Shown: piece by piece, positions 2,958 through 26,980 of the stretch
How the letters are laid out: every line of letters starts with the position of its first letter
Numbering within the stretch: the stretch's first letter is position 1
Position numbers and translations under genes: made by a program
NCBI GenBank assembly: GCA_973895155.1
Contig: OZ316894.1
Location: 7,960,234 to 8,024,233 of the forward strand
Reading direction: 5' to 3'
DNA length: 64,000 bases
From: Marsupella aquatica
Lineage: Eukaryota; Plantae; Marchantiophyta
Notes under the pieces: model-generated
What the model saw: the letters and a program-made list of their open reading frames with translations, nothing else
What the model was told of the DNA's origin: nothing
The model's database searches: none

Positions 2958-3279
2958 TCTGACTTCCTGAAATCAAGTCCAACAATGCAAAGTTAGCTCT
3001 GTTTGTTTTTCAAGTTCAGTTGCAGAATTCAGGTTCATGATTTCATGAAGCAAGGTTCTTACCTTGATAGTGGAGTCGGAAGTTGAATTTGCAGCGCCTG
3101 TTGTTCCCGCTTAGAAGAGTGTCACTGGTATTTTTATCCCTGATTTTGGCTTAGCTTATCTCCTTCACCTCCCTGGCAGATGCCTAAGCTGATCGACCCC
3201 TCCCCACTTAATATCGTTTGCAATGTCCTCCCCAATTTGGACCTCGTCCCTTCGGCAATGGTCGATCCTCCCCAGGCCT

Positions 3280-3830: not shown

Positions 3831-4479
3831 AAAACTCTCTCCTGAGCGCAAACTTGCACGACAGCTTTTGATCTTGCTGTCTCCTAACCAAATTTCTTCC
3901 ACTCCTTCCACGATTAATCCTCCATTCCACGACCGATCTGCGCCTCAACAGCCAGGAAATTACAGAGCTGCACCAGATGTTGGTCCGCCCCCGATTTTCA
4001 GTTCCAGTTTAGGGATTCAACCCAACTCCTATTCAGACCACACCAATCACTGAGGGAAGAGCTTTCCATAGCACCAAGCTTTAGCCCACCATATATAGCT
4101 CTTCGCCAAGCTTCCTTTCCGTTCGCGCTTTGCAGATGCACGCCCACACTCCAAGCACCTGACAGTCCAATTTGTCTCAAACTTAGCATTTTCTAATTTT
4201 TGGGGTCATGAATTCATGAAGCTTTCGCCACCTCCACTTCAGAAATCCAGGAAGGTCGTAACCCTTCATGAATTCATGAAAGGGAATCAAGTATCATTTT
4301 GAAAGAATCTAGTGAAAAGTCAAAATTTGGGCCAAAAATAACCAATACCATGGGTAATAGAAATACAAGAAAAACCAAGAAAACCCCTAAAAACAGGGGT
4401 CATCGAAAACATTTTTGGTTGCAATTGAATAGTCTCCCACTAGAAGAAAACAGGGCCCTTTATGACCAATCACCCAATG

Positions 4480-5400
4480 ACAGAGATGAATAAATGACCA
4501 AAAGTTTTAATGACACAAAAAGAATGACGGGGGAATGACTGTCCACAATGACCAATAGACTGAAATGACAAAATGTTAATTTTTTCGTCATTTTGTATAA
4601 TGTCTATAATGACTGATGCGACCAAAATGACCCAATTTCCCTAAATGGTCAATTTAGACACATGTCTTAAATGACACAATTAATAACAACAATGATAAAT
4701 CAGTGTTTAGCAACATTATAGTCACTCTGGACAATGACTGAAATGACCAAAAATCTATTTGCATCATTTTGGACAACGGTGATAAATGACAAAAAATGTA
4801 TTATCGTCATTTTAACCAACGGTGTTAAATGACAAAATTTAGGGTCAATCTGAAAATGAGAATATATCAGTGTTTACAACAACATATTGTCATTATGGAC
4901 TTCTGCCATAAATGACTAACTCTAGGGTCAATCTTGAAATTAGGACATATTAGTGTTTACAAGAACATACCGTCATTATGGACTTCTCTCATAAATGACA
5001 AAATTTAGGGTCAATCTGAAAATGAGAATATATCAGTGTTTACACAACATATTGTCATTATGGACTTCTGCCATAAATGACTAACTCTAGGGTCAATCTT
5101 GAAATTAGGACATATCAGTGTTTACAAGAACATACCGTCATTATGGACTTCTCTCATAAATGACTAACTCCACAGTCAATCTTGAAATTAGGATATATCG
5201 GTGTTTTCAACAACATACTGTCATTATGGACTTGTCGCATAAATGACTAAATATAGGGCAATCTAAAAATCAGGATATATCAATGTTTACAATAACATAC
5301 AGTCATTATGGACTTATTACATAAATGACTACTTATAGAGTCATTAAAGAACCCAAGAGATATGAAGATTAAAATACTCAATAGTCATTCCAGACACCTA
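4480..5400. repeat. CACTA left subterminal region: dense AATGAC/GTCATT motifs in both orientations, including an ~82-bp tandem array (~4825-5340, 6-7 copies)
   Basis: Unit TAAATGAC..TAGGGTCAATCT..AGTGTTTACAA..GTCATTATGGACTT is repeated. Typical location for TnpA-binding repeats. Confidence 0.88.
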
Positions 5401-5414
5401 TCATAATTGTAGAG

Positions 5415-8400
5415 TCATACACCTTTGGAGTGATTTTCCAGAAGTGTCATCATATATGGATGCGCGCATACTATCGTATCCATGGGGCAAATGAAACCTT
5501 TTTGTCTCTCCAAGAAGTAGGGCAATACCAATGGAAGGTTGTCATGCTTTGTTGTAATTGTGTCATGTTTGTGCCGGTGTTTGGACGGGGAATATTTTAA
5601 TTTGCAAATAAATGCATGCATACCATCACATCCAAAGGCAAATAAAAGTTGTTTTTTGGTTCTCCAAGAGGTAGTGCTGCCCCAATGGAATGGGCAGGGG
5701 AGTAATGCTTCTCAGTATGGTGTGGGTGCATTCTCAGTATGGTGTGGGTGCAGGTTTAGGGAAGAGGAATATTCCAACCTTGCAAGGAATCTAAAGCTAG
5801 CTCTCTTTGGAGGTACTAGGGCCTTTATTGGGTCATATGTGAGCAATGGCCCGTCATAAATGCCAATGACTAAAAGTAGGGTCATTAAAATTGTCATATG
5901 GAGAGTCATATCAGTCTAATGACTGGATTTGTGGTCATTTGAGGGGTCCCTTATGTAGTCATTAAGGAAAAGCACAAATGACCATTTTGGGGCTAGGGGC
6001 TTGAGGTGGGCCCTAGAGTGCCATGGGCCCCACATAGAGGTGAGAACCCCTCCACTAGGTGCGGGACACTATACTCATCATTGTCCAACCACTAGTTGCG
6101 ACATAAACACTTTGGGCACATGTTTTTGTGTTTCCTTAAGGCATGATGCACCTTTGGGGAAATCACTCCCAAGTCGTACGACTTTGGAGTGATTTGCCAA
6201 AAGTGCAACCATGGATGTATACCATCACATCCAAAGGCAAATAAAACCTGTTTTTTGGTTCTCCAAGAGGTAGTGCTGCACGAATGGAATGGGCAGGGGA
6301 GTCGTGCTTCTTAGCATGGTGTGGCTGCGGGATTAGGGTTTGGGAATATTCCAACCTTGCAAGGAATCTAAAGCTGGCTCTCTTTGGAGGTACTAGGGCC
6401 TTTATTGGGTCATATGTGAGCAATGGCCCGTCATAAATGCCAATTACTACAAGAAAGGTCATTAAAATGGTCACATTGGATGTCATATAAGTGGAATGAC
6501 CTGAATTATTGTCATTTGAGGGGTCCCTCATGCAGTCATTAAGGAAAAGCACAAATGACCATTTTGGGGCTAGGGGCTGGAGGTGCGCCCTAGAGTGCCA
6601 TGGGGCCCCACATAGAGGTGAGAACCCCTCCACGAGGTGCGGGACACTATACTCATCATTGTCCAACCACTAGTTGCGACATAAACACTTTGGACACATG
6701 TTTTTGTGTTTCCTTAAGGCATGATGCACCTTTGGGGAAATCACTCCCAAGTCATACGACTTTGGAGTGATTTTCCAAAAGTGTTGCCATGCATGCACAC
6801 CATCACATACAAAGGCAAATAAAAGTTGTTTTTGGGTTCTCCAAGAGGTAGTGCTGCCCAAATGGAATGGGCAGGGGAGTCATGCTTTTAGGGTATGGTG
6901 TGGGTGCAGATTTAGGGAAGAGGAATATTCCAACCTTGCAAGGAATCTAAAGCTGGCTCTCTTTGGAGATACTAGGGCCTTTATTGGGTCATATGTGAGC
7001 AATGGCCCGTCATAAATGCCAATGACTAAAAGTAGGGTCATTAAAATTGTCATATGGAGAGTCATATCAGTCTAATGACTGGATTTGTGGTCATTTGAGG
7101 GGTCCCTTATGTAGTCATTAAGGAAAAGCACAAATGACCATTTTGGGGCTAGGGGCTTGAGGTGGGCCCTAGAGTGCCATGGGCCCCACATAGAGGTGAG
7201 AACCCCTCCATTGCGTGCGGGACACTATACTCATCATTGTCCAACCACTAGTTGCGACATAAACACTTTGGACACAAGTTTTTGTGTTTCCTTAAGGCAT
7301 GATGCACCTTTGGGGAAATCACTCCCAAGTCGTACGACTTTGGAGTGATTTGCCAAAAGTGTTGCCATGCATGCACACCATCACATACAAAGGCAAATAA
7401 AAGTTGTTTTTGGGTTCTCCAAGAGGTGGTGCTGCACCAATGGAATGGGCAGGGGAGTCGTGCTTCCCTGTATGGTGTGGGTGCGGGTTTAGGGAAGAGG
7501 AATATTCCAACCTTGCAAGGAATCTAAAGCTGGCTCTCTTTGGAGGTACCAGGGCCTTTATTGGGTCATATGTGAGCAATGGACCGTCATAAATATCAAT
7601 GACTAAAAGCAGGGTCATTAAAACTGTCATATGGAAAGTCATATCAGTCTAATGACTGGATTTGTGGTCATTTGAGGGGTCCCTTATGCAGTCATTAAGG
7701 AAAAGCACAAATGACCAGTTTGGGGCTAGGGGCTGGAGGTGGGCCCTAGAGTGCCATGTGACCTCACATAGAGGTGAGAACCCCTCCACTGCGTGCGGGA
7801 CACTATACTCATCATTGTCCAACCACTAGTTGCAACATAAACACCTTGGACACATGTTTTTGCGTTTACTTAAGGCATGATGTACCTTTGGGGAAATCAC
7901 TCCCAAGTCGTATGACTTTGGAGTGATTTGCCAAAAGTGTTGCCATGCATGCACACCATCACATACAAAGGCAAATAAAAGTTGTTTTTGGGTTCTCCAA
8001 GAGGTGGTGCTGCACCAATGGAATGGGCAGGGGAGTCGTGCTTCCCTGTATGGTGTGGGTGCGGGTTTAGGGAAGAGGAATATTCCAACCTTGCAAGGAA
8101 TCTAAAGCGGGCTCTCTTTGGAGGTACCAGGGCCTTTATTGGGTCATATGTGAGCAATGGACCGTCATAAATATCAATGACTAAAAGCAGGGTCATTAAA
8201 ACTGTCATATGGAAAGTCATATCAGTCTAATGACTGGATTTGTGGTCATTTGAGGGGTCCCTTATGCAGTCATTAAGGAAAAGCACAAATGACCAGTTTG
8301 GGGCTAGGGGCTGGAGGTGGGCCCTAGAGTGCCATGTGACCCCACATAGAGGTGAGAACCCCTCCACTGCGTGCGGGACACTATACTCATCATTGTCCAA

Positions 8401-10580
8401 CCACTAGTTGCGACATAAACACCTTGGACACATGTTTTTGCGTTTACTTAAGGCATGATGCACCTTTGGGGAAATCACTCCCAAGTCGTATGACTTTGGA
8501 GTGATTTGCCAAAAGTGTCACCATGGATGCATACCACTATTCCAAACGCAAATGAAGCCCTTTTTTGTCTCTCCAAGAGGTAGCGCAACACCAATGGAAT
8601 GGGTGTGGTAGTGGTGCTTCCCTCTATGATGTGTCTGATGTTTAAAGGTATACGATTATTCCATTTTTGCAAGGAATGTAGAGCGGGCTCTCTCTGGCGG
8701 TGCTAGGACCTTCTTTGGGTCATTTTTTAACAGAGTCATGTCATAAGTGTCAATGACCACAAGTAGGGTCATTGAATTGGTCATATGGGATGTCATATAA
8801 TTCAAATGACTGGACTTGTTGTCATTTGAGGGGTCTCTAGTGCAGTCATTGAAGACAAGCATGAATGACCAATTTGGAGCTAAGGGCTGGAGGTGGGCCC
8901 TAGAGTGCCATGTGGCACCACATAGAGCTCGCAACCCCTCCACTAGGTGTCAAATACTATAATTACTATTCTCCAACCACTAGTTGCACCATTAGCAGTT
9001 TGGAGCCATATTTTTGTGTTTACTTAAGGGATGATATAATCTTGGGGAAATCACTCCCAAGTCGTACGACTTTGGAGTGATTTGCCAAAAGTGTCACCAT
9101 TGATGCATACCATCCTATCTAAAGGAAATGAAGCCATTTTTTTGGTCTCTGCAAGAAGTAGTGCAAGGCTGTTGTCGTTCCATGTAATTGTGTCATGTTT
9201 GTGCCGGTGTTTGGATGGGGAATATTCTATTTTGCAAATGAATAGTGATGGGGCACTCAAGAAGGTAGTGTAATCTTCATTGAGTCATTTCTGAAAAAAT
9301 TGGTGTCATAAATACCAATGACTACAAGTAGGGTCATTAAATCTGTCATATGGGCTGTCACATAAGTCAAATGACTGGATTTGTGGTCATTTGAGGGGTC
9401 CCTTGTGCAATCATTAAGCAGAAGCACAAATGACCAGTTTGGGGCTAGGGGCTGGAGGTGGGCCCTAGAGTGCCATGGGGCCCCACATAGAGGTGAGAAC
9501 CCCCTCCACTAGGTGCGGGACACTATACTCATCATCGTCCAACCACTAGTTGTGCCATGAACACTTTGGACACATGTTTTTGCATTTACTTAAGGCATGA
9601 TGCACCTTGGGGAAATCACTCCCAAGTCATACAACTTTGGAGTGATTTGCCAAAAGTGTCACCATGGATGCATACCACCGTATCCAAGCGCAAATGGAGC
9701 CATTTTTTGTCTCTCCAAGAAGTAGCGCAACACCAATGGAAGGTTGTCATCTTGTGATGTAATTGTGTCATGTTTGTGCCGGTGTTTGGATGGGGAATAC
9801 TCCATTTTGCATATGAATAGACTTAAGGCATTGTGAGTAGGTGTTGTAATCTTCATTGGGTCATTTTGGAGGAATAGTGTGTCATTAATGCCAAAGACTG
9901 CAGTGAGGGTCATTTTGGCAGTCCTTTTGGAAGTCATTTGTGCCAAATGACTCCATATGGGGTCATTATAGAGGTCCCTCATGGTGTCATTACGTACCAT
10001 CAGAAATGACCCTTTTGGGTCTAGGAGCTTAAGGTGGCCCTAGTGTGCCATGGGGCTCTACATGAAGGTGGCAACCTCTCCACAAGGTGCGGGGTACTAT
10101 ACCCACCGTACTATTCTCCAACCACTAGTTGCACCATGAGCACTTTGGAGCCATGTTTTTGCAATTACTTAAGGGATGATGCAACCTTGGGGAAATCACT
10201 CCCAAGTCATACAACTTTGGAGTGATTTGCCAAAAGTGTCACCATGCATGCATACCATCCTAAGGCATGCATACAAAAATTGTTTTTGTCTCTCCAAGAG
10301 GTATATAGTGCAATACTAGTGGAAGACTATGTCCTTCTATATAACTATGTCATGTTTGTGCCAATATTTGGATTTTGGATATATTCTATTAAATTCCAAA
10401 GGAATTGTAAAGGGGCACTCCGAGAGGTAGTATACTCTTCATTGGGTCATTTTCACATAATGTGTGTCATTAATGTCAATGACTACAATAAGGGTCATTT
10501 TGGTAGTCAGTTAGAGGTCATTTGGAGCAATTGACTGCATATGTGGTCATTAGAGAGGTCCCTCATGGTGTGTCATTAAT
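5415..10580. repeat. 578-bp tandem repeat array (~9 copies) inside the CACTA element
   Basis: AATCACTCCCAAGTC recurs near 6161, 6739, 7317, 7895, 8473, 9049, 9615 and 10194. Near-identical spurious ORFs are spaced 578 bp apart (7319/7897, 7404/7982). Central copies are almost identical; edge copies are diverged. Confidence 0.95.
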
Positions 10581-11159
10581 GGAAACACCTCAAATTAGGG
10601 TAATCTTGGTTGTCATACTAGAGGTCAGAAGTACCAAATGACTGGAAATGTGGTCTTTACAAAGGCTATTGGGGGGTTCTCTTTGGAGGTACAAGGGAGT
10701 TCATTGGGTCATTTGTGAATTAAATGGTGCTTCAATCTGAGGACTAAACGTGGGGTCACTCACGCTGTCATATTGGAAGCCATTAATGTTGGCATATTGG
10801 AGGTCATATAGTCATGGGAAGGCTCACTTATTAATGCTTTGGTGTAATGCTCTCAAAAACTCTTACACAACATAGCCTCATATGTAGTGGTCATGTAGCA
10901 TGTAAGGGACCCTATAATTGTGCTTGAGTCATGAATGAGGGTTTCTCTCAATTGAGTCAGGAGTGGAGAGCTATTAAATGCTAATATTTGGATGAGTATC
11001 ACTATCATATGGTGAGACAATAAGGTAGTCCAAAATGGTGTTCATGCATGCGGGTTATGGGTTTATATCGCGGGCATATATCGGACCTTTTATATCGCTA
11101 GCATCATTTTTTATATATAACATTGGTCCTTAACATTCTTGTTGGCACCTACACAAACA

Positions 11160-11350
11160 GCCATGACCTTATGGGGGGGGTCGTGACATTATGAGTTATT
11201 AACCTTGCCTTCCCTACTTAGGGCCTTATGGGGGCGTCCGGACCTTGTTATTAACCTCTATAGTTGGTATTTCCCTAGGGCCTTATGGGGGGGGGTTTAC
11301 ATTGTTATTAACCTAGTCTCAACTTCCCTAGGGCCTTATGGGGGGTCCAG
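11160..11350. repeat. ~55-60-bp degenerate tandem repeat (GGCCTTATGGGGGG..TTATTAACCT..TTCCCTA), ~4 copies
   Basis: CCTTATGGGGG visible near 11167, 11224, 11281 and 11334. Confidence 0.7.
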
Positions 11351-11918
11351 ACATGTGAGAGATATTGTCAGAATATAACCCTAATTAATGACCCACAATA
11401 TCCACCATCCCCATCCAACAGAATACCTTACCTTTACGGGGTTTAGGGGTCTAGCATTAGGTTTTTCCCGCTAAGTGTTCTTGCGTACCAACAGGAGCCC
11501 TTTTTCCTGAAAAAACATCGAGAGGGCAACGCTCGATGTGCTCATTTCTTGGCATGCCTTTGTGTGCACATTGCAAGGGCTTAGGGTTGCGCAGCGTTGT
11601 GCTCCATTCCACCAAGCTTCGACACCCTTCGAAGCGTTGGGCGAGGCATTGTTCGGGCAAGCATTGGGTGAGGCATTGTTTGAGTGAAGCGTTGGACGTG
11701 GCATTGTTTTAGTGACCATTTGCAAGGTTTAGAGGAGGAGCTCCGACCCGAAGCCATTCAGGCTACAATTGTTTTTGAGCTTGTTGCGCGCGGTCGGCGG
11801 AGCACCTCGGTAGGACTTGGGAGCTTCTTTGGAGGACCCTGCGCTTTGGAGGACATTCGGGCTTTGGAGTGCCCGATTGCAGGGTCAAGGCAATAGCTTC
11901 TTTACATTTGTCATTGTT

Positions 11919-12170
11919 GCGGGTGAGGAGCGGAGGATGAGCTGCAATCGGCGATAAGCTGCGGGTGAGGAGCGGAGGATGAGCTGCAATCGGCGATAAG
12001 CTGCGGGCGAGGAGCGGAGGACGACCTACAATCGGCGATAAGCTGCGGGCGAGGAGCGGAGGACGACCTACAATCGGCGATAAGCTGCGGGCGAGGAGCG
12101 GAGGACGACCTACAATCGGCGATAAGCTGCGGGTGAGGAGCGGAGGACGAGCTGCAAATCAGCGACGAGT
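11919..12170. repeat. 42-bp tandem repeat (GCGGGYGAGGAGCGGAGGAYGASCTRCAATCGGCGATAAGCT), ~6 copies
   Basis: Copies start at 11919, 11961, 12003, 12045, 12087 and 12129; a degenerate tail runs to ~12240. Confidence 0.93.
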
Positions 12171-14518
12171 TGCAATCAGCAGCAAGCTACAATCGGCAAG
12201 AAGCTGTGGGTGAGGAGTTGCAATCGGCGAGAACCTACAGGAGGTTCCATCAAGGAGCTGCGAGAACTTATATCTGTGGGAGCGAGTTTGGGCTGAGGTG
12301 CGAGAAGGTCAGTTGTGCAATTTTGCGCTTCTTCCCCTTCTGGCCATTTGTTCATTCTGCATTTTTGCTTTGCTTTTGCCAATGTGCTACCAATGTGCTG
12401 TCAGTCCATGAATCCAATGTTGCCTTCTTGTTCTGTTGCTTAGTGTCTGCTAGTATGCTTATGGCAATGACAGAGAAGCTCCGATTGCTAAGAGACTATT
12501 TGCTCTCTCTTTCTCGCTCTCTCTCTGTCCCTCTCTCTCTAAGTGCCTGAGTTTTGCACCAGTTTTTGAATGTCTACAATGTTGAGTTCCCTTTGCAGAG
12601 AAATGTGAATGCAGTTTTCGAATGTCTAGAATGTTGAGTTCCCTGACGTGATGCGATGGAGCATCCTGGACGCGCACTGATTGTAGCAGTTGTGCGTGTC
12701 GTCGGCACTGTCATGGATTGGAGAAGGAAATCCCATAGAACTAGCCATTGCACTTTCTCGCACAATGCCTGCATTTCCTTCCCTGTACCATGCTAGCTCC
12801 ACTGCGACCTTCCACTGCTATCTATGTTGATTCCTTCCACTGCTACAAAATTCTGCTTTGCAATGGCATCCCAATGCTCATATGTCCCAGTAAAATTCGG
12901 GTAGACATAAGTATTAGGCGCGGACTCTTCTCTCTCTGCCTGCCCAAGATCAGGGTTTACTGGTTCTAATTGCTAATTCAGTCCCCATTTAGAAAGACCT
13001 AAGAAATTTAACTATCTTCGAGCTTTATTGTTTGTTTTGGCAAAATCTTCCCTTGCGGCCAGCAGCTGAGGCCCAGCGTCCACGATGTCCGATACATTTT
13101 TCAAGACATAAGTAAGCTGGCTGGGAAATGCCTTTCTCCTCAATCTCAAGAGATGATTTTTCTGGAGTCTGCTCACGTATTGCTCTTGCTTGTCCAGAAC
13201 CTGAACAGCTATTTACCACAACTGAATCAAGTGCCCGAGTTCTGACCAAGTTGTCCTTTGTCTGTCTGCTGTTGATTTCTGATTGCTACTTGTTGGATTT
13301 GTCTGCTATGTTCAATTCAGTTTGTTGTCTTGTTGTCGTCTGACAATGTTTGTGGTGCAAGGTGAGCTTGATCTCTTATTATTACAATGTAGTCCTTAGT
13401 TTTCCATTGTATGATGTTTTCCTTAGTCTATCTATGTTCCTCAATGAATTGGTTTCCTTACTCTTCTTTTGACATCCCTCTGTATCATAGCCCTTTTCTT
13501 TTCTCTTTTTTTTACTGAAGAGAAGTGCAAGCATGTATGGTGAATCCTCACTTGATTCCAGCAGCGACTCTGTAGAATTTTGTCGCCAAAAAGTTTCAGA
13601 GTTTCGTGTGTGGTTTGCCAACTGCTGTGCCACCTCAGAGAATTCCTTAGTGGCTTTTGTACAAGCCTTGCTCTTCAACTATGGTAATTTACAGCTAACT
13701 GTCTGATGTTCACACAACATCCATACACAGCAATGAATACAACTCCATGAATACAGCCACATGATTTCCTTTGGTCTGCAAACTGGACAAAACTAAACTA
13801 AAATCAGCTTGGTCAATTTTAAATCCTTCGTAAGGGTCTCTGACAGCAGCCCGGTATAGTCATTTGTGCACGAAGATAGAGTACGGTGCAGCTTTTGAAA
13901 AAGTGGGTGGACCAGCAGCTTGTTGAGAGTAAAGCAACTTATGGTTCTGTAACAGATGTGTGCAGCAGCTTAAGATGTAGAAGGCACACAATAAAACTTG
14001 ATTTTTACAGATTTAAAAAAGGGCAGGGTGAGTGAGCACTGCATGTTGAACTCACAGGTCCGAATCTTGATTTGATTTCGCTGCTAAAATTCGTATCTCT
14101 TGCCTGAGTCCCAGTTTGCTGGAGTTTTGTTGCTCTCTGTGCTTTGTTGTGCACATTGTTGTGTTTGCTCTGTCCATTTTAAAACTTGAGAGCCAAATGA
14201 ATGCTTTGCTGAAACTCAATTGCTATTTGTTCTGTGTTGCCCTTACAGATTTTAAAAAGGCAGGGTGAGTGAGCACTGCTGTACAACAAGCAAAGGCATA
14301 CAGGTTGCAATATTTGTGATTGCTTCCAATCATCTAGGCCAAGGTTATTTGCGCTGCTCAGTCCTAAATGCTTTGCCATCTATAAAGCATTGGTTTATGT
14401 TGCACCCTTGTGGTTACATGTCATATTTTATGCTGCACCCTCATTCTTTTGTGTCATACTGCACCCTGTTATTCCTTCTTGTTTCACAATCTGATGTAGG
14501 GTCTGAGTGTGCAGGACC

Positions 14519-15178
14519 ATGGCTCGCAATAAGCAGAAGGCCATGAATCGTTGCAGAGGTGAATCCTCTCAAGCACCTCAATTGTCCTTATATTCAGACA
14601 TTGAGATTAACCAGAATAGTCCACATGTATGTGCGATTTGTGATGAGGGAGGGGATCTCATTGTTTGTGATGGGCCTTGCCACCGACATTTCCATAAGAA
14701 TGTTTCCTGTCCTTTGGGTCAGCAATGGCTATGCCCAACTATATCCCTCGCTGATGGCCATGTTGGAGAATGGCTTTGTGTTGATTGCAAGAATGAGGAA
14801 CATTCTTGCTTTAAGTGCCATGTGTCTAAAAAAATTGGTGAAGAGGTAAGAAAATGTCCAGACTCTCTCTGTGCCCGGTTTTACTGTCGGCAGTGTTTGG
14901 TTCCTGGCACAGCATCATGTGGACTCCATATTTGTCTTACTTGTGGACAGGGGCCCAATGATGGGGCTAATGGCTTTTTGGTTCAGTGCATGAGGTGTCC
15001 TAAGGCATGGCACAAAGACTGCCTGCTGTTTATCCAGCAGAGGGGATTTGCCCATGATCGAACAATTTGGGATCACTCAGCGCATGGGCAGCCCAAGAAG
15101 GGGATGTTTTACTGTCCTGACCATGACATTGATCCTACACTAGGCACTCCTGCTAGGAGCCACATATCTTGGATTTGA
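14519..15178 (+). CDS. Stand-alone EDM2/NSD-type composite PHD-finger protein (219 aa), CACTA cargo
   Basis: Uninterrupted ORF: CAICDEGGDLIVCDGPCHRHFH..WLCVDCKNEEHSCFKC..VRKCPDSLCARFYC..CGLHICLTC..LVQCMRCPKAWHKDCL..IWD..MFYCPDHDIDPTLGTPARSHI. Cys/His spacing and the C-terminal YC-x-x-H-x-ID-x-x-L-x-TP-x-R-x-H motif match my recollection of the plant EDM2 PHD region. Confidence 0.85.
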   Translation: MARNKQKAMNRCRGESSQAPQLSLYSDIEINQNSPHVCAICDEGGDLIVCDGPCHRHFHKNVSCPLGQQWLCPTISLADGHVGEWLCVDCKNEEHSCFKCHVSKKIGEEVRKCPDSLCARFYCRQCLVPGTASCGLHICLTCGQGPNDGANGFLVQCMRCPKAWHKDCLLFIQQRGFAHDRTIWDHSAHGQPKKGMFYCPDHDIDPTLGTPARSHISWI

Positions 15179-15775
15179 TTGAGGCTGGATCGAACACAAA
15201 CTTGAGATAGAGCTTTTTGATGGTTTCACGTGGACTTAAACAATTTTCAGAGTGCTAAAACATGTGGACTATTTATATGCAGTTTGATGAACTCCTCATG
15301 TATACACACTCTACGACAGTGCATTGCGGATTGAGGCAATTAATTTTGAGAAATCAACTTTATTATCTTTTCCAGGGTAGGATTCTGATTTTCAAGCATG
15401 TACTTTGAGTGTGACTTTCCTCCATATTGATGTCTAAACTTCACTTGTAAATTTGTCACTGGTGTCACAAACGTTACTTATTCCAGACCTGTCTGCTCAC
15501 ATTCCTAATAGGCAAACAAATACTGGAAATGATGAAGGCACAGAGATTTACGTTCATAGTATCATTCTGATGACACTGTATGTGATGCTCTATTTGTATG
15601 CAAGGAGAAGGTGCCCTACTACAGTGGATTTGAGAAACTGGGCTCTGTGGGTTTGAGCAATTGGACTGTGGTTGGCATCGGTTGTACAACTGTGACGGTA
15701 GGCCCAATTTTGTATGCATGTCACTCTGATTCAGTTTGAAAATCATAGTTTGAATACAATTTCAATCAAGCTAGC

Positions 15776-18700
15776 ATGGCACAATTGCCACAGAATACGT
15801 TAGGTGTGGGTAGAACTCCAAAGTTGCCGCTCTTCCATCCAGCTAGAGTACAACATCGTGATGATGCTTTGTGGGTTCGAGAACAGAAGGCCTGCCACAA
15901 GAGTGGGGACCATAAGATGTACTGCCCTTGTGTGAACTGCAAAGGGAATTATAGGACTAATCGGAATACTGCTAGACTGCACCTTATTAAACATGGTCGG
16001 TACCCTGCATGTCGAGTGTGGGTGGGAGAGGGACAGGACTCTTCTGATGAAGAGTGGGGTGCTGACTACATGTCACAACATGGCCCTGAGGCATTGAGGG
16101 TAGCAAACCTTCAGCAGGCAACCTGTGCACAACAGCCAACTGTAGATGTTGAAGAACATTTATTTGTAGATGTTCCAGAGTATCCAACTGTGGATGTTCC
16201 AGAGTATCCAACTGTGGATGTTCAAGAACATCCAACTATAGATGTCGAAGAACATATCAGGGCTCTACTGGAAGAAACGTTGCTGAGAACCAGTGAAGAA
16301 TCCCCTGAGCATGAGCTAGATGATCAGGACCGTTTTGACTTGGATTTTGTACTTGGGGATGATGAGAGTGAAGGAGGTGCCCATCCTGTAAACCCCCTTG
16401 AAACCTCCAAAACTCCTGTGGAGACTGATCCTGCACAGTTATCTTTAGATGCAGCAATGCAACCTTTGTTCCCAGGCAGCAAAATAGATGTTGTGTCATT
16501 CATGTTGCTTCTGCTGAACATCTGTCATGGCCATGGATTCTCAAACAAAGGAGTGAATGCATTGTTGTCTTTGATGGGGGAGCATGGTATGCCTACAAAG
16601 CATAATCTGCCCAAGAACTTATATGCTGCAAAGCAGCTATTGAGAAAGCTTGGCTTGGATTATGAGAGAATCCCTGTCTGTGAGAAAGGTTGTATGCTCT
16701 TTAGGGGTGAGAATGCCAAGTTAGAAAACTGTTCAGTGTGTCAGCAGCCCAAGATGAAGAGAGTGGGGAATTCATTACAGGCAAGGAAGGTAGTGCGGTA
16801 TTTCCCTATAATTCCCAGGTTGAAGAGATTGTATGCCACTGCTGGTACATCTAAACTCATGACTTGGCATCATGAGAATAGAAGCACAGACAACATGGTT
16901 CGGCACGCAGCAGATTCAAAGGCTTGGAAGCATGTGGATACAAATATTGATCGGGAATTTGCAGCTGAACCAAGGAATGTGCGATTTGGGTTGGCACTTG
17001 ATGGGGTGAATCCCTTTGGGAATAATTCCACAGCTTGGTCTACCTGGCCAATACTGTTGTTGAATTACAATTTACCTCCTTGGCTTACCACCAAGAAGTT
17101 CTTTGTCATGCTAGCTATGCTGATTCCAGGACCTGATTCAGTAACAGAGGAACAGCTAGACATAATATTGGGCCCATTCTATGAGGAGTTGGAGCTGTTG
17201 TGGAAGAAAGGAGTGCCCTGCTTTGACAAATTGCCACGCCCAGGATTGTCTCAACACTTCAACCTTAGGGCTGTGCTATTGTGGACAATCAATGATTACC
17301 CTGCATATGGTTTAATATCTGGACAACAACACTTTGGATACAAAGGATGTGTCATCTGTGGGCCAGAATGTATGGCACGTGGTTCTAAGCACTTGCAGAA
17401 ATTAGAGTACAGTGGCCACCGTCGATGGTTAGCAACAAGGCATCTTTTTCGTAGACCAGATAGTGCACAATACTTTGATGGTGCAATTGAGAGTCGACCT
17501 GCACCGTGTAGAATGACAAGCTCTGATAGAAAGAAGTGGGGAGACGAGACAACAGAATATTTGAAGAAGGGAGGAACCAAGGTTGAGGATGAGAAATGCC
17601 CCATAAAGGTGCATGGAGTGAAGAGGGCTACTGGTCTGTACAAGTTGCCCTATTGGAATGTAAGACTCCATACTACTACAATGAATTTCTGCAATCTCTT
17701 CATATGACTTTGAAATATATTCTCTTCATATACTTCCTGTAGCCCAGATTTTGTAATTGTTGTATTCAATGCACTAATTTCTGAATTGTGTCCACTGCAC
17801 AAACTACTGCCCAGTGATGCCAAAAGTTGTATTCAATGCCCTAATTTCTGAATTGTGTGTCCACTGCAGAAACTACTCATTAACCATTGTCTAGATCCCA
17901 TGCACTGTGAGAAGAATCTTGCACACAACATTGTGCACACTATCATTGGGACCAAGGACACTCCTTCTGTGAGAGAAGACATGAAGCTCTTACAGGTGCG
18001 CCAACACCTATGGCTTGTACCCAATCCAGCTCCCAAGCGTAAGGATGACAAATTGTTGATGCCCCCAGCCCCATATTGCCTGAGCAAGAAGGAAAGAACA
18101 AGGTTCTTGGAGGTTTTATTGACCTTGAAAGGGCCCACTGGTTTTTCAAGTTCTTTGGCAAAGTGTGTTACAAAATCCAAGAAACTCTCTGGGTTGAAAT
18201 CACATGATTTCCACCAACTCATGCAACAGATTCTCCCTCTGGCAACAATGGGATTACTTGATGAAGGGGTTCGCTTGGCCATAGCTGGGGTGAGCAATAT
18301 CTATCGCCAGATCTGTACGAAGGTGTGGGACCCTTCAATGTATGAGAATTTGATGATGGATGTTGCATTCACTCTCTGCATTTTGGAAATCCATTTTCCA
18401 CCAAGCTTCTTTGATGTCATGACCCATTTAATGATTCACCTAGTGGAGGAATTAGACTTGTGTGGCCCAGTTACAGGCAGATGGATGTACCCAATAGAGA
18501 GGAACCTGAAGGTATTGAAGGGTTATGTACGAAACAAGGCACGTCCAGAGGCTTCTATGGCTGAAGGCTATGTATTAGATGAGTCTTTGGGATTTCTTTC
18601 TGAATACATGATTGATGCAAAGGGAGAGGGAAAACGAACCTGGGAGTTGGAGGAGGATGCTGGCGTTGCAGGCATTGTTTTGGAAGGGGCTGCAAAGGCG

Positions 18701-19769
18701 ATAACTTTGGATTGGTCTGAAATGATGGCCATGCATCATTATATATTAGAGAATGAAGAGACAGTGGCTCCATGGTATAGGTACATAAACCCTAGAAACT
18801 CTCCTATCCTTAGGCATATGGATCATAATTATGTTTCCCCATTGTGTTTGTATATTCATGGTGGATCGTGCACTAATGTCTTCAGTGTTGTTGTTGCCAT
18901 GCAGGATATATGATGCTACCAATGAGACTGTTACCAAACGAAGAGTGGATTTCCGGAAGGAGTGGATGAGGAAGCCTGCCAATCGAAGAAAACCAGTGGA
19001 ATTTCCCGTAGACTGCCAAGAATTGCCACCTTTCAGGGAATGGTTTCAAACATTAGTCAATACCCATAATTTTGAGAAAGAGTCTGAGCGGTCATTACTA
19101 TCTGCATACTCCACACCACCTAGTTTGAAGGCACGACTGTATAGGGCATGTAGAGCCTATGGGCACCATTGGAGGACTATTCCATCCTTGGGGTGTTTGA
19201 GTGATTGTGATTCTGGTGCTTTCAGCACTTTTGATTCTGGGATGGCTTCTACATTCACTGAGAAGCGAGTGGACAGGTCTGGTGCAACCATAGAAGAATC
19301 TGTACAGTATGTAGGGGCCTTGACAGATATCTTGGTACTGAATTATGGCAGCTTGAGGAAAGAGGTGATTCTTTTCAAAGGGAAATGGGCAGATCCATCA
19401 TGGACTCCTAAATCCTCTGCCAGTATGAGGTATACCAAGTCTGGTCTTTGGCAGGTGAATTTCCATAGAGAACTGGGTGTGTCCAAGAAAATGGATTACG
19501 TTTTCCCAAAGCAAGTGGAGCAGGTTTTCTTCCACCCCAATGAGAAGGGGATAGCATGGAGAACAATCCTCCACAAAGAATCCAGGTCCACAAGGGTGTT
19601 AGGTGATTACACAGACGTTGATTTCCATGCTACAATGGAAAACAATGCCAAATTACACATCGAATTGGCTAAGGCCTGTAGGTCCAGAGAAAATCCAGGA
19701 CCAAGTACTGGTCCCAAACGAGGCAGAGATGCAGAGGGATCTGCAAGAAAGGGCAGGCCTAAGCAGTGA
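15776..19769 (+). CDS. CACTA TnpD/Tnp2-type transposase (Transposase_21 and associated domains), 3 exons, ~1219 aa, apparently intact
   Basis: Exons 15776-17659, 17870-18780 and 18905-19769 with GT-AG introns total 3660 nt, in frame. Motifs: CPCVNC, RYFPIIPRLKRLY, FGLALDGVNPF, NLPPW, TINDYPAYG, LPYW/LDPMHCEKN, GLKSHDFH, WMYPIER, VFPKQVEQVFF. Confidence 0.95.
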
Positions 19770-19867
19770 ATAGGTTTTAGCTAGGTGTGTGAAGTCCATA
19801 GATGGACTACATGTATGGACTATTTATGAAATCAGACTAATGGTTTACCCATTTGTGCAGTTGGTGA

Positions 19868-22800
19868 ATGCAGCCTGTGAAAGGAAGATTGCAAGGGTTG
19901 TCACATTCTGTGAATCCTTATGAGGAGGCCCGAAATCGGAACATAGAGCATAATGTCAGAATTATGCGTGATCTAGGACTGGGGCCAGACTGCAAGCTGA
20001 TGTGTGTGTTGATATGTCTATTGCAAATTTGATTCAGTAGATGGAGTTGTCAGGTTCATGTTCTGTTTTCATATTCCAGATTGGTCTCATACTAGTATGG
20101 ATCCTGTACATAAGTACTAGTGTTATGGTGTTGTAGATTCATTTTGCATGTATGTTTGATCTGCATTGGTGTATGTTGATGATTGCTTTGTTCCTTAGAG
20201 GCCCAACCACACATGTACAACGAGAGAGAGGAAAGCCTGCTTTGGTGAAAGGTACTTCAACTGAAACATTGCCAAAGAGGAGGAGCTCTAGACTATCAGA
20301 AGTTACCAAGGTGAACATGGCAGAGTTTGGTGATGATGGCTATGGTTCTCCTTCTGAGTATGACACTGAGGATTCTGACATTGGAGGGTCAGAACCAGAG
20401 AGTGCACAACAGGTAATGCTTGAACTTCATCATCCTAATAGGAAGGGATCCTTGTCCCTTTTTCAAATTATATGTTGATATGCTTACGTTGTCCATGATG
20501 TAGGTACAGAAACAAAATCGTGGTCCTAAGAAGACTGGGCCTGGTGGAGGTGGGCTAGTGAGATGTTGGAAAGACCCAGACACTGGACTCTTATATGAAA
20601 GTGAGTGGATTGTACTGTTCTACTTTTCAGGTGTGTTTGGAAGTTGATATTCTACTTGGAAATGAAATTAATTGAAGTGCTTTGGTGTTGTGTGTTTGTT
20701 TAGTGGTTCCATCAGCATCTGAAGGCAGATCAGGTCAATCTGATGTACTACATTCCAGAGGATCTTCAGGTAATACACAATCTGCTCGTGTTGCATATGC
20801 AAGTACATTTGCTCAACTTTTCAATCATGTACATATTTTTTGATTGAATGCATGTGTGTGCATTGCAGGAGGGGCCTCTGAGATGCGCAGGGAACGAAGG
20901 CATGCTAAGAAGCAGTTTGATAATACTGCCAAACAACGAAGGGATTGCGGAGAGGTGCCCAAACACATTAAAGTGAGTATTGTACTTGTTTGTAGATTTA
21001 GACAAATCTGATCCTCTCTGTTGTTGTGTGTATAAAACCTGGACTCTGCATAAATTCCAGAGTTATGATCTGACATTGTCTGTGAAATGCAGATTTATGA
21101 CAATGATATTGATGATTCTGATGGCAACAAACAATACTGGCTGGAGGAACTTCGTGGCAACGTACTCAGAGTCTTTGATGTATCAAAGCCAAAATGGACT
21201 GATCATCCACAAGTTCATACAACCACAGTGTGGAATAACATGGCAGCTGAGTGGGAGTATGTGGGTGGGGAATTTATTAACACCAAATTCCAGAGTCATT
21301 GTCGTGGCATATTGAAGAGAGAGCGCCATAAAATGCATGTTTATTGGAAGAAAGTTTGCAATGAGGATCCAACCAAACTTGGGCCATCTGGTGTTGATCC
21401 AAAGAAATGGGCAGCTTTGGTATCTCATTTTACCAGTCCAGCATTGATATCTTTGAGTAAACAGATGACTGATAAAAGAGCACGAGTGCAAGATACCTCT
21501 CACTTTGGAAGGGGAGGGCATGCTGCAGCAGCAAAGAGAATGGTAAATTGTCTATCATTTTCACTATCAATTCTGTCTTGTTTGTGAATCTTGATGAAAA
21601 CAAACTCTGTGATTTCTCATTCATTGTGTGTTTGAACAGAAGCAGAAGAGAGGATCAAGCCCAGGTATATCTGACCTGAAAGAAAACCATGGTAGTCAGG
21701 GTTCATTGCCAAAGGTGACAATGAGCCCATCATTGGCAAGTGCAGAAGGTCAGACTGGTAGTTTTGTGGGAGCAAAGGTGAGCCCATCATTGGCAAGTGG
21801 GGAGGGTAAAAGTGCTAGCTTACTGGGGCAAGGAAACAGACATGGATCAGCTGTGAGTATTGTCATACCAATTTGATTTGTACATCATTCTCCATTTGAC
21901 AGAGCCAGTGTTGTGTCGTTTGTAAGTTTGACAGTGAGACTGTTGTGTTGGTTTGTGGTTCATTTACAGACCCCACATTCAAAAGAAGAGATCACTGCCA
22001 TTGGGGCTGTGAAATTGGATGTCGCTGAGTTGAAAGGCACTGTGAGGGAGTTGACAAACATGATGACTACATGGATGGCACATCACCCCAGTAATGCACA
22101 AGTTCCAACAGTTGTGCCTAGTCACAGTAAGTTGACTACAACTACCAAACAAGGTAGTAGAAAGCGATCTCTTACTTTTTCAGGCGATAATGAAGGTAAA
22201 ATTCTCTATCATGTATACACTGTCCATTCAATGTAATTATTGTGATGTGTATATGTCATTGCATGTTTATAATGTTCTTGCATGTTTTTAGTGTGATTAT
22301 ATGTTGCTGGTGTATACATGTTTGTTTATGCATTTCTTTTGTGTGTGTTTTATGACAGCATCTTTAGGGGAGCCTCCTGTGTCGCAGGGAAGACCAACTG
22401 ACACAGCTAACAGTACTCTAAAGCAAACTGAATTGGAAGTGAACCTTTTGCCATCTAAGTTGCCCAAAGAAGCCATTTCAGATGTCTTTCAGTTGCCAGA
22501 GGATAAGTCGACTCAGTTGACACCAGATGTAACCCCAGAATCATCTGAGTTGCCAAAAGAAACTCCCATTCCAAGTGAACAGGATGACACTCCATCAACT
22601 AGAAAGGGAAAGAAGAAAAGGAAGAAAGGATCCTCAGCAAATGCATCACCTGCACAGAAGAAACCAATGCAGTCTCCTAACCCCGTTGCAAAGGTAAATG
22701 TGTGTTTGATTTGAGTGTTCTTCTATCTTTCAATTTCTGTTTATTGCATTTTTAACAAAATGTGTTGTTCACAGTTTGCAAGAGGAGATTTGGTGAAGAT

Positions 22801-23035
22801 GAAGAGCGTTGTGGACAATTCCATGATAGTGGCAGAAGGTGAGGTGACAGGGCTGCCAGGAGAAGATAAGTTTCATTGTGCAGATTTTGAAAGCCCTTTC
22901 TTGCGAGTGCGTGTGATTGAAGTGTTTGTAGATGTGGCATTGCCATTTGCCAATTCAGGGGAGAACCAGTCTAAATTATCTGATGTGAAAGGGATGAATG
23001 CCCTATGGAACTCTAGATTGCTTAAGAAGCAATAG
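19868..23035 (+). CDS. CACTA TnpA/Ptta-like multi-exon gene (exon boundaries only partly resolved)
   Basis: N-terminal YEEARNRNIEHNVRIMRDLGL motif (19868-19985). Ptta-like WAALVSHFTS..KRARVQDTSHFGRGGH (21405-21525). C-terminal Tnp1-type VAEGEV..FH..VRVIEVFVDVALPF..ALWN (22774-23035). Multiple GT-AG introns; canonical position downstream of TnpD. Confidence 0.75.
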
Positions 23036-23379
23036 AAATAGCACTCTATCAAGAAACAATAGACATGATAGAATGACAACTCTGTTTTTCTATAAACATG
23101 CAGAGTGATTGGTATGTCAGGTTGTAACAATTGACAATCTAATATTATTGATGTCAATGTAATTTTGTTTCATAAATTTGCATTGAGTTCAATATTTACC
23201 GTGAGACTTATGAAGGTATCTTGTATGAATATCAATTGGATTTGTGATATATATCGAATGTTTCTTTAAGTTTTCATTTAGCAACTCTATTGAATGGCTT
23301 TGTAATATATGATTTTTGATTGACATCAAGTTTTATCTATCATGATCACTTAAATTTGAATTTCTCCAAATCATTGAAT

Positions 23380-24100
23380 ACTTCGTCTGAATGACTGGCT
23401 TGAATGACTAAATGACTGGCTAGAATGACTGATGTAATGGTCATTATTCACAACTATCTTTGTGACCAATATGACTCAACTCTGGTCATTAAAGACATAG
23501 ACTAAATGATTCAAAGAATGACATATACAATGACCTTTCTCATGGTCATTATAAACAAGTCCACTATGACTCACTTTATGTCATTCAAGACATGTCATTA
23601 ATGACTAATGTGTATCTTTACGTGTCTTCTCCCAATTGAACCACGTGTCTCAATATGACTTGTTTATACTGTAGTCATTTTGGACACGTCCAAAATGACC
23701 CAAATATATTGCCAAATGGTGAATCCTCTTTGAACCACGTGTCACTATTTGATTTGTTATATAATGTACGTCATTTTGGACAAGTCCAAAATGACCAATG
23801 TTATTAGTTTTTTTATTGCCACGTGTCGTTGTGTGATTGGGTACGGGGACCATCGACGGTCAACGGCAATTGACCGTCGATGGTGATTTGTGTCGTCATT
23901 TTGGACCGTTCAACATTTATGACCATATCATAAAAACGGTCATTTAGGATAGTATGAAATGACCACATGTTTTTAGCGTCATTTGTCCAAAAGGACCGTG
24001 ACCAAAATGTCCGTTGTGACGTGTCTGGAAAGACGAGAACAATTGCGTCATTGTTTTGTTAAAAAGACCTGATTAATAGTCATTGTTTTGGTCATAAAAT
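23380..24100. repeat. CACTA right subterminal region with AATGAC/GTCATT motifs and a perfect 15-bp hairpin (23849-23884)
   Basis: Many AATGAC/GTCATT copies; ACCATCGACGGTCAA-cggcaa-TTGACCGTCGATGGT. Confidence 0.85.
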
Positions 24101-24566
24101 ACATTGTTTTCTACTAGTGTCCAAAAACCTCAAAGAAAACATGGGGTAAAAATGACCAATGCATTACTGATACACTATCTTAAGAGTTTGGCATGAAAAC
24201 ATATGCTAAAAGTAAAAAATAAAATTATGAGAAGACTCACAATATTTCAGGAGAAGACTTCACAGGAATGAATTAACCAAGTCTGCAAGAACTCTAATGA
24301 GTATTAGAAACCTGAAAACATAAGTAAACCTGTGAGATTTGGAGAAGTAATAAACTATTTGTTCATGAAAGATTTCTTTCCTTGCCACTAATTCCTAATG
24401 AAGGGCGTGGCCCTTTTTCTTATTTTATTGCTAATTAAGTTTTTGAGTTATTTCCAAAATCTATAAAAGGGGCTTCGTATTCATGACTCTATCTCATTTC
24501 TATTTTTCAGTTTGAGTTCATTTGGTGTTCTAGGTGTTCCCTTGTGAGTTTTGTGCAATTTTTGAA

Positions 24567-26980
24567 ATGGCAGCCTCAGATTATGAGTCAGACGATTATT
24601 CGGATGGTATTTCGGATGATGTTTCCTTCCCGGATTGTCCTTGTCCTATTACTTCTCCAGATGCTCCTAGTAAAACCACTATTTTGGAGATGCTTCCCCC
24701 AACTCCAATGAGTAAGTTGAAAGGAAAGGCTCTAAGTGTACCAAATATTCAGCAAAAAGTATTTGGTCCTTGTCTTAGTGAGCACTCTGACTCTTCGGAC
24801 TCATCTGAGAGTACAAGTCCCCCTGGCCGTCAAGTATTATTGAATCCTTCTCAAAGGGGGGTTAACTTGGGTGTGCGTTCTGTAGGCCCTCAACATAGTG
24901 GAGAGCTGAAAAAGAGGACTCATGAATTCATGAAGGCCAGATCTGGAGATGTGCCAAAAATGCCCAGTGAAAGCCCAAAAGTGAATTTTTGTGCACTCCA
25001 GGAAAGTTGTGGTGTGCAACATGCAACAATGAAAGAGAGTGAGTATTCTCGTCCTACATCTTTCAGATTTCAAGAAGGAGTGAGAGCGGAAACAAGGAGG
25101 CCGCTTGGAACTGAGACTAATTCAAACAAGGAGAGGATCAATTTGAGAAGATCTCCAGGGAACTTTGATCGTTTGGCTGAGGTTGGAAGCGGATCTAAGT
25201 CGATATACAACAAGGGCAAGAAGAAGGTCTTTGAGGAGATTCCAAACAAGAGGCCAAGAGAGTCAACCGAAGGTGGTTTCTTTGGGAATTCAGATCAAAA
25301 TCGATCAAACTCACTCCTTTTGAGAGTGAAGGGAGAGCCATTGAGTCCTCAAGGGCCTGCTCGAGGGCGGGTGAGGAGGGGTTTGTCTGCATACCAACTT
25401 GATAAACTTGTGGATATATCTTCTTCAATCGAAGAATCTTCTTCTGAGAGTGATGGAGAGCTTGCAGAGAGAGTTATGATGGCTAATAAACGACCGTCAA
25501 ATCTCAGCTTGTGTGAAACAAAGATGACAGAGGAGGATATCAAGAAGACAAATCGTAAGTACTGTTGTCAACGTCATTGTCTCCTGAGTCTTTCACCAAA
25601 ACAAATTTGTGAAGCACGCTCCAAGTTTTTGAGGCAAATATCTCAGGATCGATCTTTATCTTTGCACTGGCTCGTCAAGCAAGACGGAAATGAAGCTCAG
25701 GGGAGGTCCAATGTCACATACATGATTGGACAAAGAGATGTGTGTAGGAAAGCTTTCAAGATGGTCTTTTGTGTAGGAAATGAGAGATTGAATAGGATCA
25801 AGAAGCTAGGCAATCAAGATCTTGCTTATCCTAGACCGGCTGGTCGACCTCCATCTGTGAGAACATTGGTATTGAGTTCTTGGTTGAAGTTTTTTTTGAG
25901 ACTTGTGTGGAGACTCTACCAAATAAAGATGTTTCACATTTGCCTGATAATTATTCCAAACTAGAAGTTTGGAAAATATATGATTCAAGCTATGTGATCA
26001 CTGATGAGTCATCCAAAATATCATATCGACAATTTTTGAAAGTATGGTCACAAGACTTTGGGCATGTGAAGATTCCTCCTGTGAATCGTTTTAGTGCTTG
26101 TGCGGACTGTGAAGAATTCAAAACAATTCGAGACAAAGGAGTCTCGGAAACTGAAAAACGTAAGTCATTTTCATTTTTGTTGTTTTGAACATGTCTTTGT
26201 ATTAGATTTGTCAGGAAATCAATTGAGTAATGGGTAAACATTAGGAATGAATTTCAAGTTAACAACTTTGCTCTACCATTTTTCGATTGATTGCAGGTAG
26301 AGGAGAAATAATGTTACAAAAACATCGAGAACAACAATCGAAAGAGCGGGAAAAACTAGCAAAGCATCAAAAGAAATGTTTCACAAACCCAGAAAAATAT
26401 TTGGGAGTTGTGATTGATGGAATGGATCAAAAAAAGACTAGATTACCCCATTGGCCACGTCCTCCAAAATCCGTTGATGAGTCCTGTTTAATCCAAATGC
26501 ATGTGGTTGGTTGTCTTCTTTTCCACGGAGCACTATTTTCTAGGGTGTTCCTTAATTATCCAGTTCTCCATAATGATGGAAATCTTACCATTACTATTTT
26601 ACAAAGAGTATTCCTAGAATATCAAGAGAAGTATGGGGCCTTCCACCAGTTTTTTACCTTCAGCTTGACAATACAAGTAGGGAAAACAAAAACAATTTAC
26701 TTCACAATATCTTCACATGCTGGTACAAAAAAAGGTATTTCGAAAAATCAAACTTGGATTCCTCTTAGTTGGACACACCCATGATCAAATAGATCAAATG
26801 TTTAGTAGGTTCTCAAAAAGGCTTGGAAGATTTAAGGCCTTTACCTATGATAGTTTATGTAAGATTATTCAAGAATCTTACCAACCCCAACCTGAAATTA
26901 CCCTTTTAAATGAGACATATGATTTTTGAAAATTTTCTTTCTCAGAGCCTGCTTTGATCAGAGAAAGGATACAAAATGTT
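24567..26980 (+). pseudogene. Sola1-like DDD transposase, frameshifted and 3'-truncated
   Basis: CCQRHC..YMIGQRDVCRKAFKMVF; FSACADCEEF; VVIDGMDQKKTRLPH; (frame-corrected) LPPVFYLQLDNTSRENKN; LGFLLVGHTHDQIDQMFSRFS. Frameshifts at the poly-T near 25890 and near 26640 and 26705; intron ~26160-26297; stop at 26929. Confidence 0.75.

Follow-up and report, generated by a model that had tools for sequence, protein, structure and literature searches.

The element and its genes

The window analysed here, a 64,000-nucleotide stretch of Marsupella aquatica contig OZ316894.1, carries a 19.7-kb transposable element, within which lies a gene for a stand-alone EDM2-type triple-PHD protein of 219 amino acids (P0001; 14519-15178, + strand). 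As an earlier note on this DNA had claimed, the gene is one intact open frame of 219 codons, from ATG 14519 to TGA 15178, and it sits just upstream of the transposase gene TnpD on the same strand, its stop being 597 bp from the TnpD start codon at 15776. It is also CACTA-encoded, as proposed there, since it lies between terminal inverted repeats (TIRs) at 4438-4469 (+ strand, beginning CACTAG) and 24088-24119, which match at 26 of 32 positions and are flanked by TCC target-site duplications at 4435-4437 and 24120-24122. TnpD (15776-19769, + strand; exons 15776-17659, 17870-18780 and 18905-19769) is open over 1,219 aa once two GT-AG introns are removed, and its Pfam domains (Transposase_21, DUF4218, DUF4216), the CACTA-type TIRs and the 3-bp duplication identify a CACTA (En/Spm) element. 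A nine-exon open frame follows at 20199-23035 (+ strand; 607-655 aa by splice choice, the first exon not being fixed), which is named TnpA-like by position only and has no Pfam support. With its TIRs, its duplications and open TnpD and TnpA-like frames the element is complete and coding-intact, and of its three genes, all on one strand, the PHD gene comes first.

Both element ends are crowded with the words ATGAC/GTCAT, at 33-36 per kb vs about 2.5 per kb elsewhere. The 5' subterminal region at 4438-5450 has 33 per kb, the 3' TIR arm lies within an ATGAC-rich subterminal region at 23380-24119, and the words are likely candidate binding sites of a TnpA-like protein. Farther in, the 5' part of the element holds a tandem array of about eight copies of a 578-bp unit (5612-10680), each with a 52-bp near-palindrome, and 42-bp GC-rich tandem repeats (11876-12199, + strand) that are likely to belong to its 5' leader region. 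Two duplicated micro-exon-like segments (14011-14027 and 14249-14264, + strand), each bounded by TTACAG before and GTGAGT after, are likely 5' UTR exons. A consensus 3' splice site (TGCAG/G, 14510-14515, + strand) ends 4 nt 5' of the start codon of the PHD gene, and a second candidate acceptor AG, at 14499, follows a T-rich tract. Splicing of the leader to the PHD gene is suggested by the acceptor 4 nt before the ATG together with the two segments upstream, so that the gene, previously described as intronless, is intronless in its coding part and probably has a spliced 5' UTR. In the copies of organisms B and C (see below) positions 14366-14480 are swapped for 29 other bases and the 40 bases before the ATG are kept, which is how an intron whose acceptor is conserved should behave. 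The predicted introns found no match among the 15 contig joints listed out of 52.

The element is inserted into other repeat-like DNA, with frames at 338-4053 (- strand) and 24534-26784 (+ strand) around it, a DUF7869-like piece among the downstream frames (26263-26784, E=5e-5) and a C-rich tract of 25-bp repeats upstream (3212-3944). At 30908-42018, 281-bp inverted repeats (98%) lying 10.5 kb apart enclose SWIM-finger-like and other broken frames (- strand) and probably delimit a MULE-type element. An NB-ARC/LRR gene cluster occupies 45933-57933 (+ strand) and 60096-61533 (- strand); its frames resemble the HNL class of liverworts, with hydrolase-like N-terminal frames at 52612-53406 and 60595-61533 (DUF676 at only E=0.03), and an NLR class with a hydrolase-like N-terminal part has been described from Marchantia (PMC3645687), pointing to a probable bryophyte, possibly liverwort, host.

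The stretch, or part of it, was recovered from eight sequencing runs of six studies (X1 to X8), none of which is on record as RNA, so that they have no bearing on expression. Coverage reaches every one of the 30 bins of 10500-24500 in X1 and X2 (organism A), X3 (organism B) and X5 (organism C), and every one of the 30 bins of 14440-15860 in X5 as well as in X6 (organism B); X7 and X8 cover 13/30 and 7/30 bins, their gaps being uninformative. The PHD frame is thus covered along its full length in organisms A, B and C, in four studies. In X1, possibly the source sample, the whole frame lies on a single 1,204-bp contig with seven differences and a depth of 701, next to 800 for TnpD pieces and 750 for TnpA-like pieces; depth is not copy number, and these values suggest a multi-copy element family that carries the PHD gene throughout.

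The PHD gene is under purifying selection. Fourteen differences fall in its frame (among the 40 listed of 81), ten of them synonymous and four, in three codons, non-synonymous, which gives a pN/pS of 0.11-0.15 (binomial P 7e-5 to 7e-4 under three transition weightings), and two of the three changed codons yield residues that are often seen in family members (G104, P116). None of the eight indels listed touches the frame; the spacer holds seven of them and TnpD the eighth, which is 6 bases long. Neutral evolution, on which the earlier idea of a functional gene could have foundered, is therefore excluded. Two loose ends in X6 (15102 and 15147) give HHTAHDQGR and AAHDHISWL when translated in frame, sequences near those of a subfamily represented by P0157 and P0160, and a shared variant at 15133 has depths of 506 in X6 and 207 in X7, where other pieces have 3-8; this hints that a second, diverged, P0157/P0160-like subfamily is also repetitive.

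The PHD cassette and its family

On P0001 Pfam recognises PHD families only (PHD_NSD, E=2e-7; PHDvar_NSD, 2e-7; PHD, 2e-4; PHD-1st_NSD, 3e-4). The cassette comprises finger 1 (C38-C90; 14630-14788, + strand), finger 2 (C97-H137; 14807-14929, + strand) and finger 3 (C139-H202; 14933-15124, + strand), the last being followed by an EDM2-type terminal motif. The zinc ligands, earlier described as largely kept, are in fact complete, P0001 having C or H wherever the host cassette has one of its 24 ligands; when 21 short family proteins are aligned with 48 others, these positions are held in 17-21/21 family rows and 46-48/48 host or other rows. Finger 2 has diverged family-wide, having lost an insert of about 19 residues and replaced H by C at position 123 (C in 20/21 family rows vs H in 46/48 host rows). 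The shortening of linkers reported before is mainly confined to C126-C134 (8 residues in P0001 vs a host median of 27) and C100-C113 (13 vs 17), the remaining three measured spacings being within 1-2 residues of the hosts. A third mark of the family, besides C123 and the shortened finger 2, lies before finger 1, where an acidic stretch is replaced by ExxQx[SA][PA]H (Q in 22/22, H in 21/22 family proteins, the latter two residues before C38); 116 other proteins mostly have D or E in that stretch. This replacement may weaken H3 binding, and because it is family-wide the H3K9me2 preference of EDM2 is not simply transferable to P0001.

PHD fingers of the AIRE/CHD4 type read unmodified H3, as is also stated in PDB titles. 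The first finger of P0001 retains their CxxCxxGG[DE]LxxCD pattern, and its nearest solved fingers are those of AIRE, CHD4, ATRX, PHF21A and TRIM24/33, with weak E values (0.001-0.3). Along its entire cassette, the C-terminal YC..H.I.P.L.TP.R.HI tail included, P0001 is 31-33% identical to named host EDM2-like proteins, which bears out its description as EDM2-like. Its best solved sequence match is to NSD2/NSD3 (E 8e-10), covering query residues 36-167. Given that the pairwise alignments with Marchantia and Rhododendron proteins both extend to residue 218 and the NSD2/3 match stops at 167, the cassette is of the EDM2 type. P0001 consists of this cassette only, with none of the RFD, PGR, ELP and methyltransferase-like parts of EDM2.

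The AlphaFold model built from 57 sequences (pLDDT 87.6, pTM 0.83), which superseded an earlier 12-sequence fold (pLDDT 67.9), has residues 23-219 as one compact unit and residues 1-22 disordered and undocked, with pLDDT under 50 in this monomer model. Fold searches with the model returned PHD-type matches only, with modest scores, among them the PHDvC5HCH module of NSD (a middling Z of 5.5; rmsd 2.6 over 75 residues), and the ESM Atlas returned PHD_NSD-type clusters only (best 0.90). The top Foldseek matches, the PZP modules of JADE1 and BRPF1, were discarded as sharing common PHD knuckles only (TM 0.2, rmsd 13-14). Sequence and fold searches against solved structures found no structure of an EDM2 cassette.

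A profile made from the first four relatives matched 496 of 1.84 billion representatives at E values up to 0.001. Among the best 150 of these, the top five are short proteins of 166-245 aa and the remainder are mostly long proteins of plants that share the cassette, several of them also having an RFD at the N-terminus. The family set comprises 32 short proteins including P0001, seven of them extra members of 90% clusters. Several relatives are truncated or lose the pattern midway, as expected of decaying transposon copies (P0017, P0019, P0088, P0091 and P0134 look truncated or frameshifted). Identity to P0001 runs from 32 to 84%, which argues that the family is old, and the ligands are conserved over this range; conservation among diverged copies with dN/dS below 1 was a check proposed in the earlier note. 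Linkage to a transposase is seen in this element family alone. A metagenome scan yielded 20 loci with 25-47% best-segment identity, none of them a family-like member and none with a TnpD match by tblastn.

The 21 short proteins placed in a tree all fall on one side of a branch with an SH-aLRT of 99, and in a more careful tree all 11 included group together at 100/100; short grass PHD proteins are placed outside the family in both trees. For outgroup we chose five divergent rows that carry no taxon labels and that we took for algal or NSD-like. On this rooting the sister group of the family consists of seven Marchantia-type paralogues, which likewise stop where the cassette ends or shortly beyond it (92/79, long stem of 1.38), a node below strong support, and placement with seed-plant-type EDM2 is not rejected by the AU test (p-AU 0.114). 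A search for long forms gave nine matches from 2,329 candidates, two from Marchantia (33% and 31%) and seven from wheat or Rhododendron, four of the seven being EDM2-like in name; none of the nine shows a transposase domain, which is weak evidence against fused forms. We infer from the tree that the gene was captured from a bryophyte EDM2-like paralogue. The alternative that this is a single copy near-identical to a host exon is excluded by the identity of 31-33% to named host proteins. Seven further proteins (P0026, P0041, P0073, P0096, P0098, P0119, P0125; 270-390 aa) form separate short groups with EDM2-type PHD fingers and without RFD. The P0026-type proteins, some starting MARKK or MARMK, are independent stand-alone forms, probably from grasses.

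An H3-like N-terminal tail

Residues 2-10 of P0001 (14522-14548, + strand), predicted to be disordered, resemble the first nine residues of histone H3. P0001 starts MARNKQKAMN and is identical to H3(1-9) at 5/9 positions after the Met; its closest relative, P0002 (82-84% identity), starts MARTKQKAYK and is identical at 7/9. We compared 25 of the 32 short proteins (seven near-duplicates or proteins without an N-terminus being omitted) with 136 other fetched proteins as controls. Within the first 35 residues, [AST]RxK occurs in 18/25 family proteins vs 3/136 controls, and [AST]RxKxx[AS] in 15/25 vs 0/136; these 15-18 carriers are not independent, the motif coming from one ancestor. The summed best tail score is 378, against a mean of 209 and a maximum of 267 in 2,000 shuffles. 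When these nine letters are permuted in all 22,680 ways, the order found in H3 scores within the top 5 with 23 proteins and within the top 13 with 14 subgroup representatives. The tail thus appears to match H3 beyond composition, its order fitting better than 99.9% of same-letter reorderings; as the motif was noticed after the fact and H3 was the one histone tail tried, we estimate a corrected P nearer 0.01.

The 17 carriers compared position by position all have R2 and K4, by definition of the motif, and 15 of them have A or S at position 7. Lysine stands at position 6 in 8/17 and at position 9 in 6/17 (N in P0001). At position 3, T is found in 3/17 only, P (6/17), K, E and others being commoner. 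The motif directly follows a Met in 8/17 carriers and is absent from 7/25 family members. The tail is rich in K and R, and a basic tail of this kind could be a nuclear-import signal. A MAR start is also found in 13/136 controls, seven of those with Ala at position 7; A1-R2 and A7 may accordingly have been inherited from a host N-terminus, K4 being the new element. Nine long EDM2-like proteins outside the seed-plant group (P0012-P0016, P0020, P0033, P0067, P0082) start MAR[TVA], mostly with Ala at position 7; these host proteins themselves open in an H3-like way. The seed-plant-type EDM2 start is MASSDDE, not MAR.

Candidate roles and related systems

It is very probable that the PHD gene is functional for the element. 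The gene is genuine and under selection, seems not to have been described before, and belongs with the accessory chromatin proteins that transposons have taken from their hosts. Our best explanation, which we hold tentatively and put somewhat below an even chance, is that this conserved third CACTA gene encodes an EDM2-derived triple-PHD protein, a predicted H3 binder with an H3-like decoy tail, that acts in anti-silencing. Its fullest version, a bryophyte CACTA histone mimic in which a captured EDM2-type reader and an H3 tail titrate host H3K4/H3K9 readers and enzymes, is possible and on balance doubtful. A CACTA element would have captured an EDM2-like paralogue of bryophyte origin; its protein, made from a transcript spliced from the element's leader, would enter the nucleus, where PHD1 would bind H3 tails. 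Removal of the Met would expose Ala1 of the tail, which would be offered as a decoy to host H3K4/K9 readers or enzymes, and host silencing readers and enzymes would be kept off the chromatin of the element, leaving its transposase genes expressible. In Arabidopsis, H3K9me persists on TnpA-activated Spm elements (10.64898/2026.08.24.746577), which gives a CACTA element cause to cope with H3K9me. A decoy was one of three options in the earlier note, and the H3-like tail, missed there, moves weight toward it.

The same selection and conservation would equally fit a chromatin-targeting adaptor, which binds a histone state together with TnpD or TnpA and guides insertion or transpososome assembly, its tail serving for import only, as the K/R-rich composition and K at position 6 in 8/17 carriers would allow. 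Transposons often recruit PHD or chromo readers, with targeting as a proposed role (10.1101/2021.11.30.470311). Known targeting readers are, however, fused to integrase or transposase, and no fused form is among the nine long matches (weak evidence); the order of the tail, moreover, fits H3(1-9) better than do 99.9% of same-letter reorderings, and we regard the adaptor as unlikely. Use of the host RNA-processing machinery, the option that the earlier note had built on ASI1 and AIPP1, we consider improbable. EDM2 binds H3K9me2 through its PHD fingers and joins ASI1 via AIPP1 (PMC7472560; PMC7529245), and P0001, with its clear EDM2-type cassette, might stand in for it in an ASI1-AIPP1-type complex, securing full-length transcription through the heterochromatic introns of an element whose genes are long, repeat-rich, intron-bearing and CG-depleted (o/e about 0.25), in keeping with the published biology of the ASI1-AIPP1-EDM2 (AAE) complex (PMC7472560; PMC7529245). 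The other domains of EDM2, an RFD-like N-terminal part and C-terminal PGR/ELP parts (PMC7529245; Pfam), are however absent, as is the methyltransferase-like part, which leaves co-option of the complex unsupported and makes it less likely than a decoy. The acidic patch before PHD1 is lost as well, and the nearest host group is the Marchantia-type paralogues that end with the cassette (92/79, with p-AU 0.114 for seed-plant placement).

Improbable to much the same degree is an auto-inhibitory switch, in which the tail docks into its own PHD1 and is released by a host modification, making the protein a regulated reader or a self-limiting factor. Tail and reader do share one chain, with about 15-25 flexible residues between them, and R2/K4 in all 17 carriers (by definition of the motif) and A/S at 7 in 15 would suit such docking; the monomer model nonetheless leaves residues 1-22 undocked at pLDDT under 50. 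Proline at position 3, present in 6/17 carriers, would also be unfavourable for the usual strand-pairing mode. Passive cargo, in which a fragment captured from the host would spread along with the element under neutrality, is largely refuted and most improbable. CACTA elements do capture gene fragments (PMC13317346), and the five relatives named above look truncated or frameshifted; against this stand the pN/pS of 0.11-0.15, a frame free of all eight listed indels, ligands kept across 32-84% identity and only 31-33% identity to named host proteins. Pack-CACTA capture was likewise rejected, the element being coding-intact, its PHD gene not near-identical to named host proteins and its evolution non-neutral.

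The PHD protein is VANC-like in its position in the element and EDM2-like in fold, and a member of neither family. With Arabidopsis EDM2 and EDM2-like proteins (AAE complex) and with the Marchantia proteins Mapa_015239 and MPTK2_3g02940 it shares a three-finger atypical PHD cassette and terminal motif (31-33%), and Marchantia-type paralogues likewise end 3-4 residues (some 45-47) after the cassette. Unlike EDM2, it is stand-alone and transposon-borne, has lost the PHD2 insert, has C for H at 123 and a replaced acidic patch, and has gained an H3-like tail; unlike PHD1-3 of NSD2/NSD3, it comes without SET or PWWP, and its match to them ends at 167 rather than 218. Like the PHD gene, which is host-derived and selected and sits in a coding-intact element, VANC of VANDAL (MuDR) elements is a separate accessory gene carried by a plant DNA transposon, and its probable source is the host chromatin regulator MAIN (PMC13547354; PMC6719617). 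VANC belongs to another superfamily (MuDR vs CACTA) and fold, no VANC/MAIN-related domain being present in P0001, and it recognises DNA motifs and is a proven anti-silencer, whereas P0001 is a candidate anti-silencer with predicted histone recognition. Counter-silencing encoded by CACTA elements has precedents in Spm TnpA and the rice CACTA-borne miR820 (10.64898/2026.08.24.746577; PMC6719617), but miR820 is an RNA and TnpA an HTH protein that binds DNA and derives from a transposase, while the PHD gene is host-derived and additional to the TnpA-like frame. It also differs, as a free gene of the EDM2 class, from PHD and chromo fusions to transposase or integrase domains; 823 candidate transposon fusions with readers, mostly PHD and Chromo, have been reported (10.1101/2021.11.30.470311).

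Anti-silencing factors encoded by transposons are so far few: three, all from flowering plants, are named in a 2019 review (PMC6719617), and those reviewed act via DNA motifs or small RNAs. The main text of a preprint surveying 962 Spm proteins does not contain the words 'PHD', 'zinc', 'Marchantia' or 'moss' (10.64898/2026.08.24.746577). Our literature search, whose scope left out most subscription journals and Repbase, found no transposon-borne EDM2-type PHD gene and no plant-transposon H3 mimic. Viral histone mimics include influenza NS1 and coronavirus ORF8. The present case differs in that a plant DNA transposon takes the place of the virus and in that the motif stands at the N-terminus of a protein with a histone-reader fold. 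As a general concept, short histone-like motifs in parasite proteins have been proposed to disturb host chromatin (PMC11738798). A free-standing histone reader that is kept by selection and carries an H3-like tail would amount to counter-defence at the level of histones and, if the mimic reading is true, to a virus-style chromatin counter-defence by a plant transposon. P0001 would also show which function of EDM2 mattered in early land plants, and it provides a natural minimal form of the EDM2 cassette; it is small and readily testable in Marchantia or Physcomitrium.

A separate observation concerns a short frame that is open at 19868-20029 (+ strand), after TnpD and before the TnpA-like exons; it has no Pfam match and bears the pattern YEE.R..NI..N...M..LGL. 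The pattern resembles the CDCA7 helix that binds the remodeller HELLS/DDM1, and the TnpA-like gene could begin with this frame as an exon, which could also supply a further module that interferes with chromatin.
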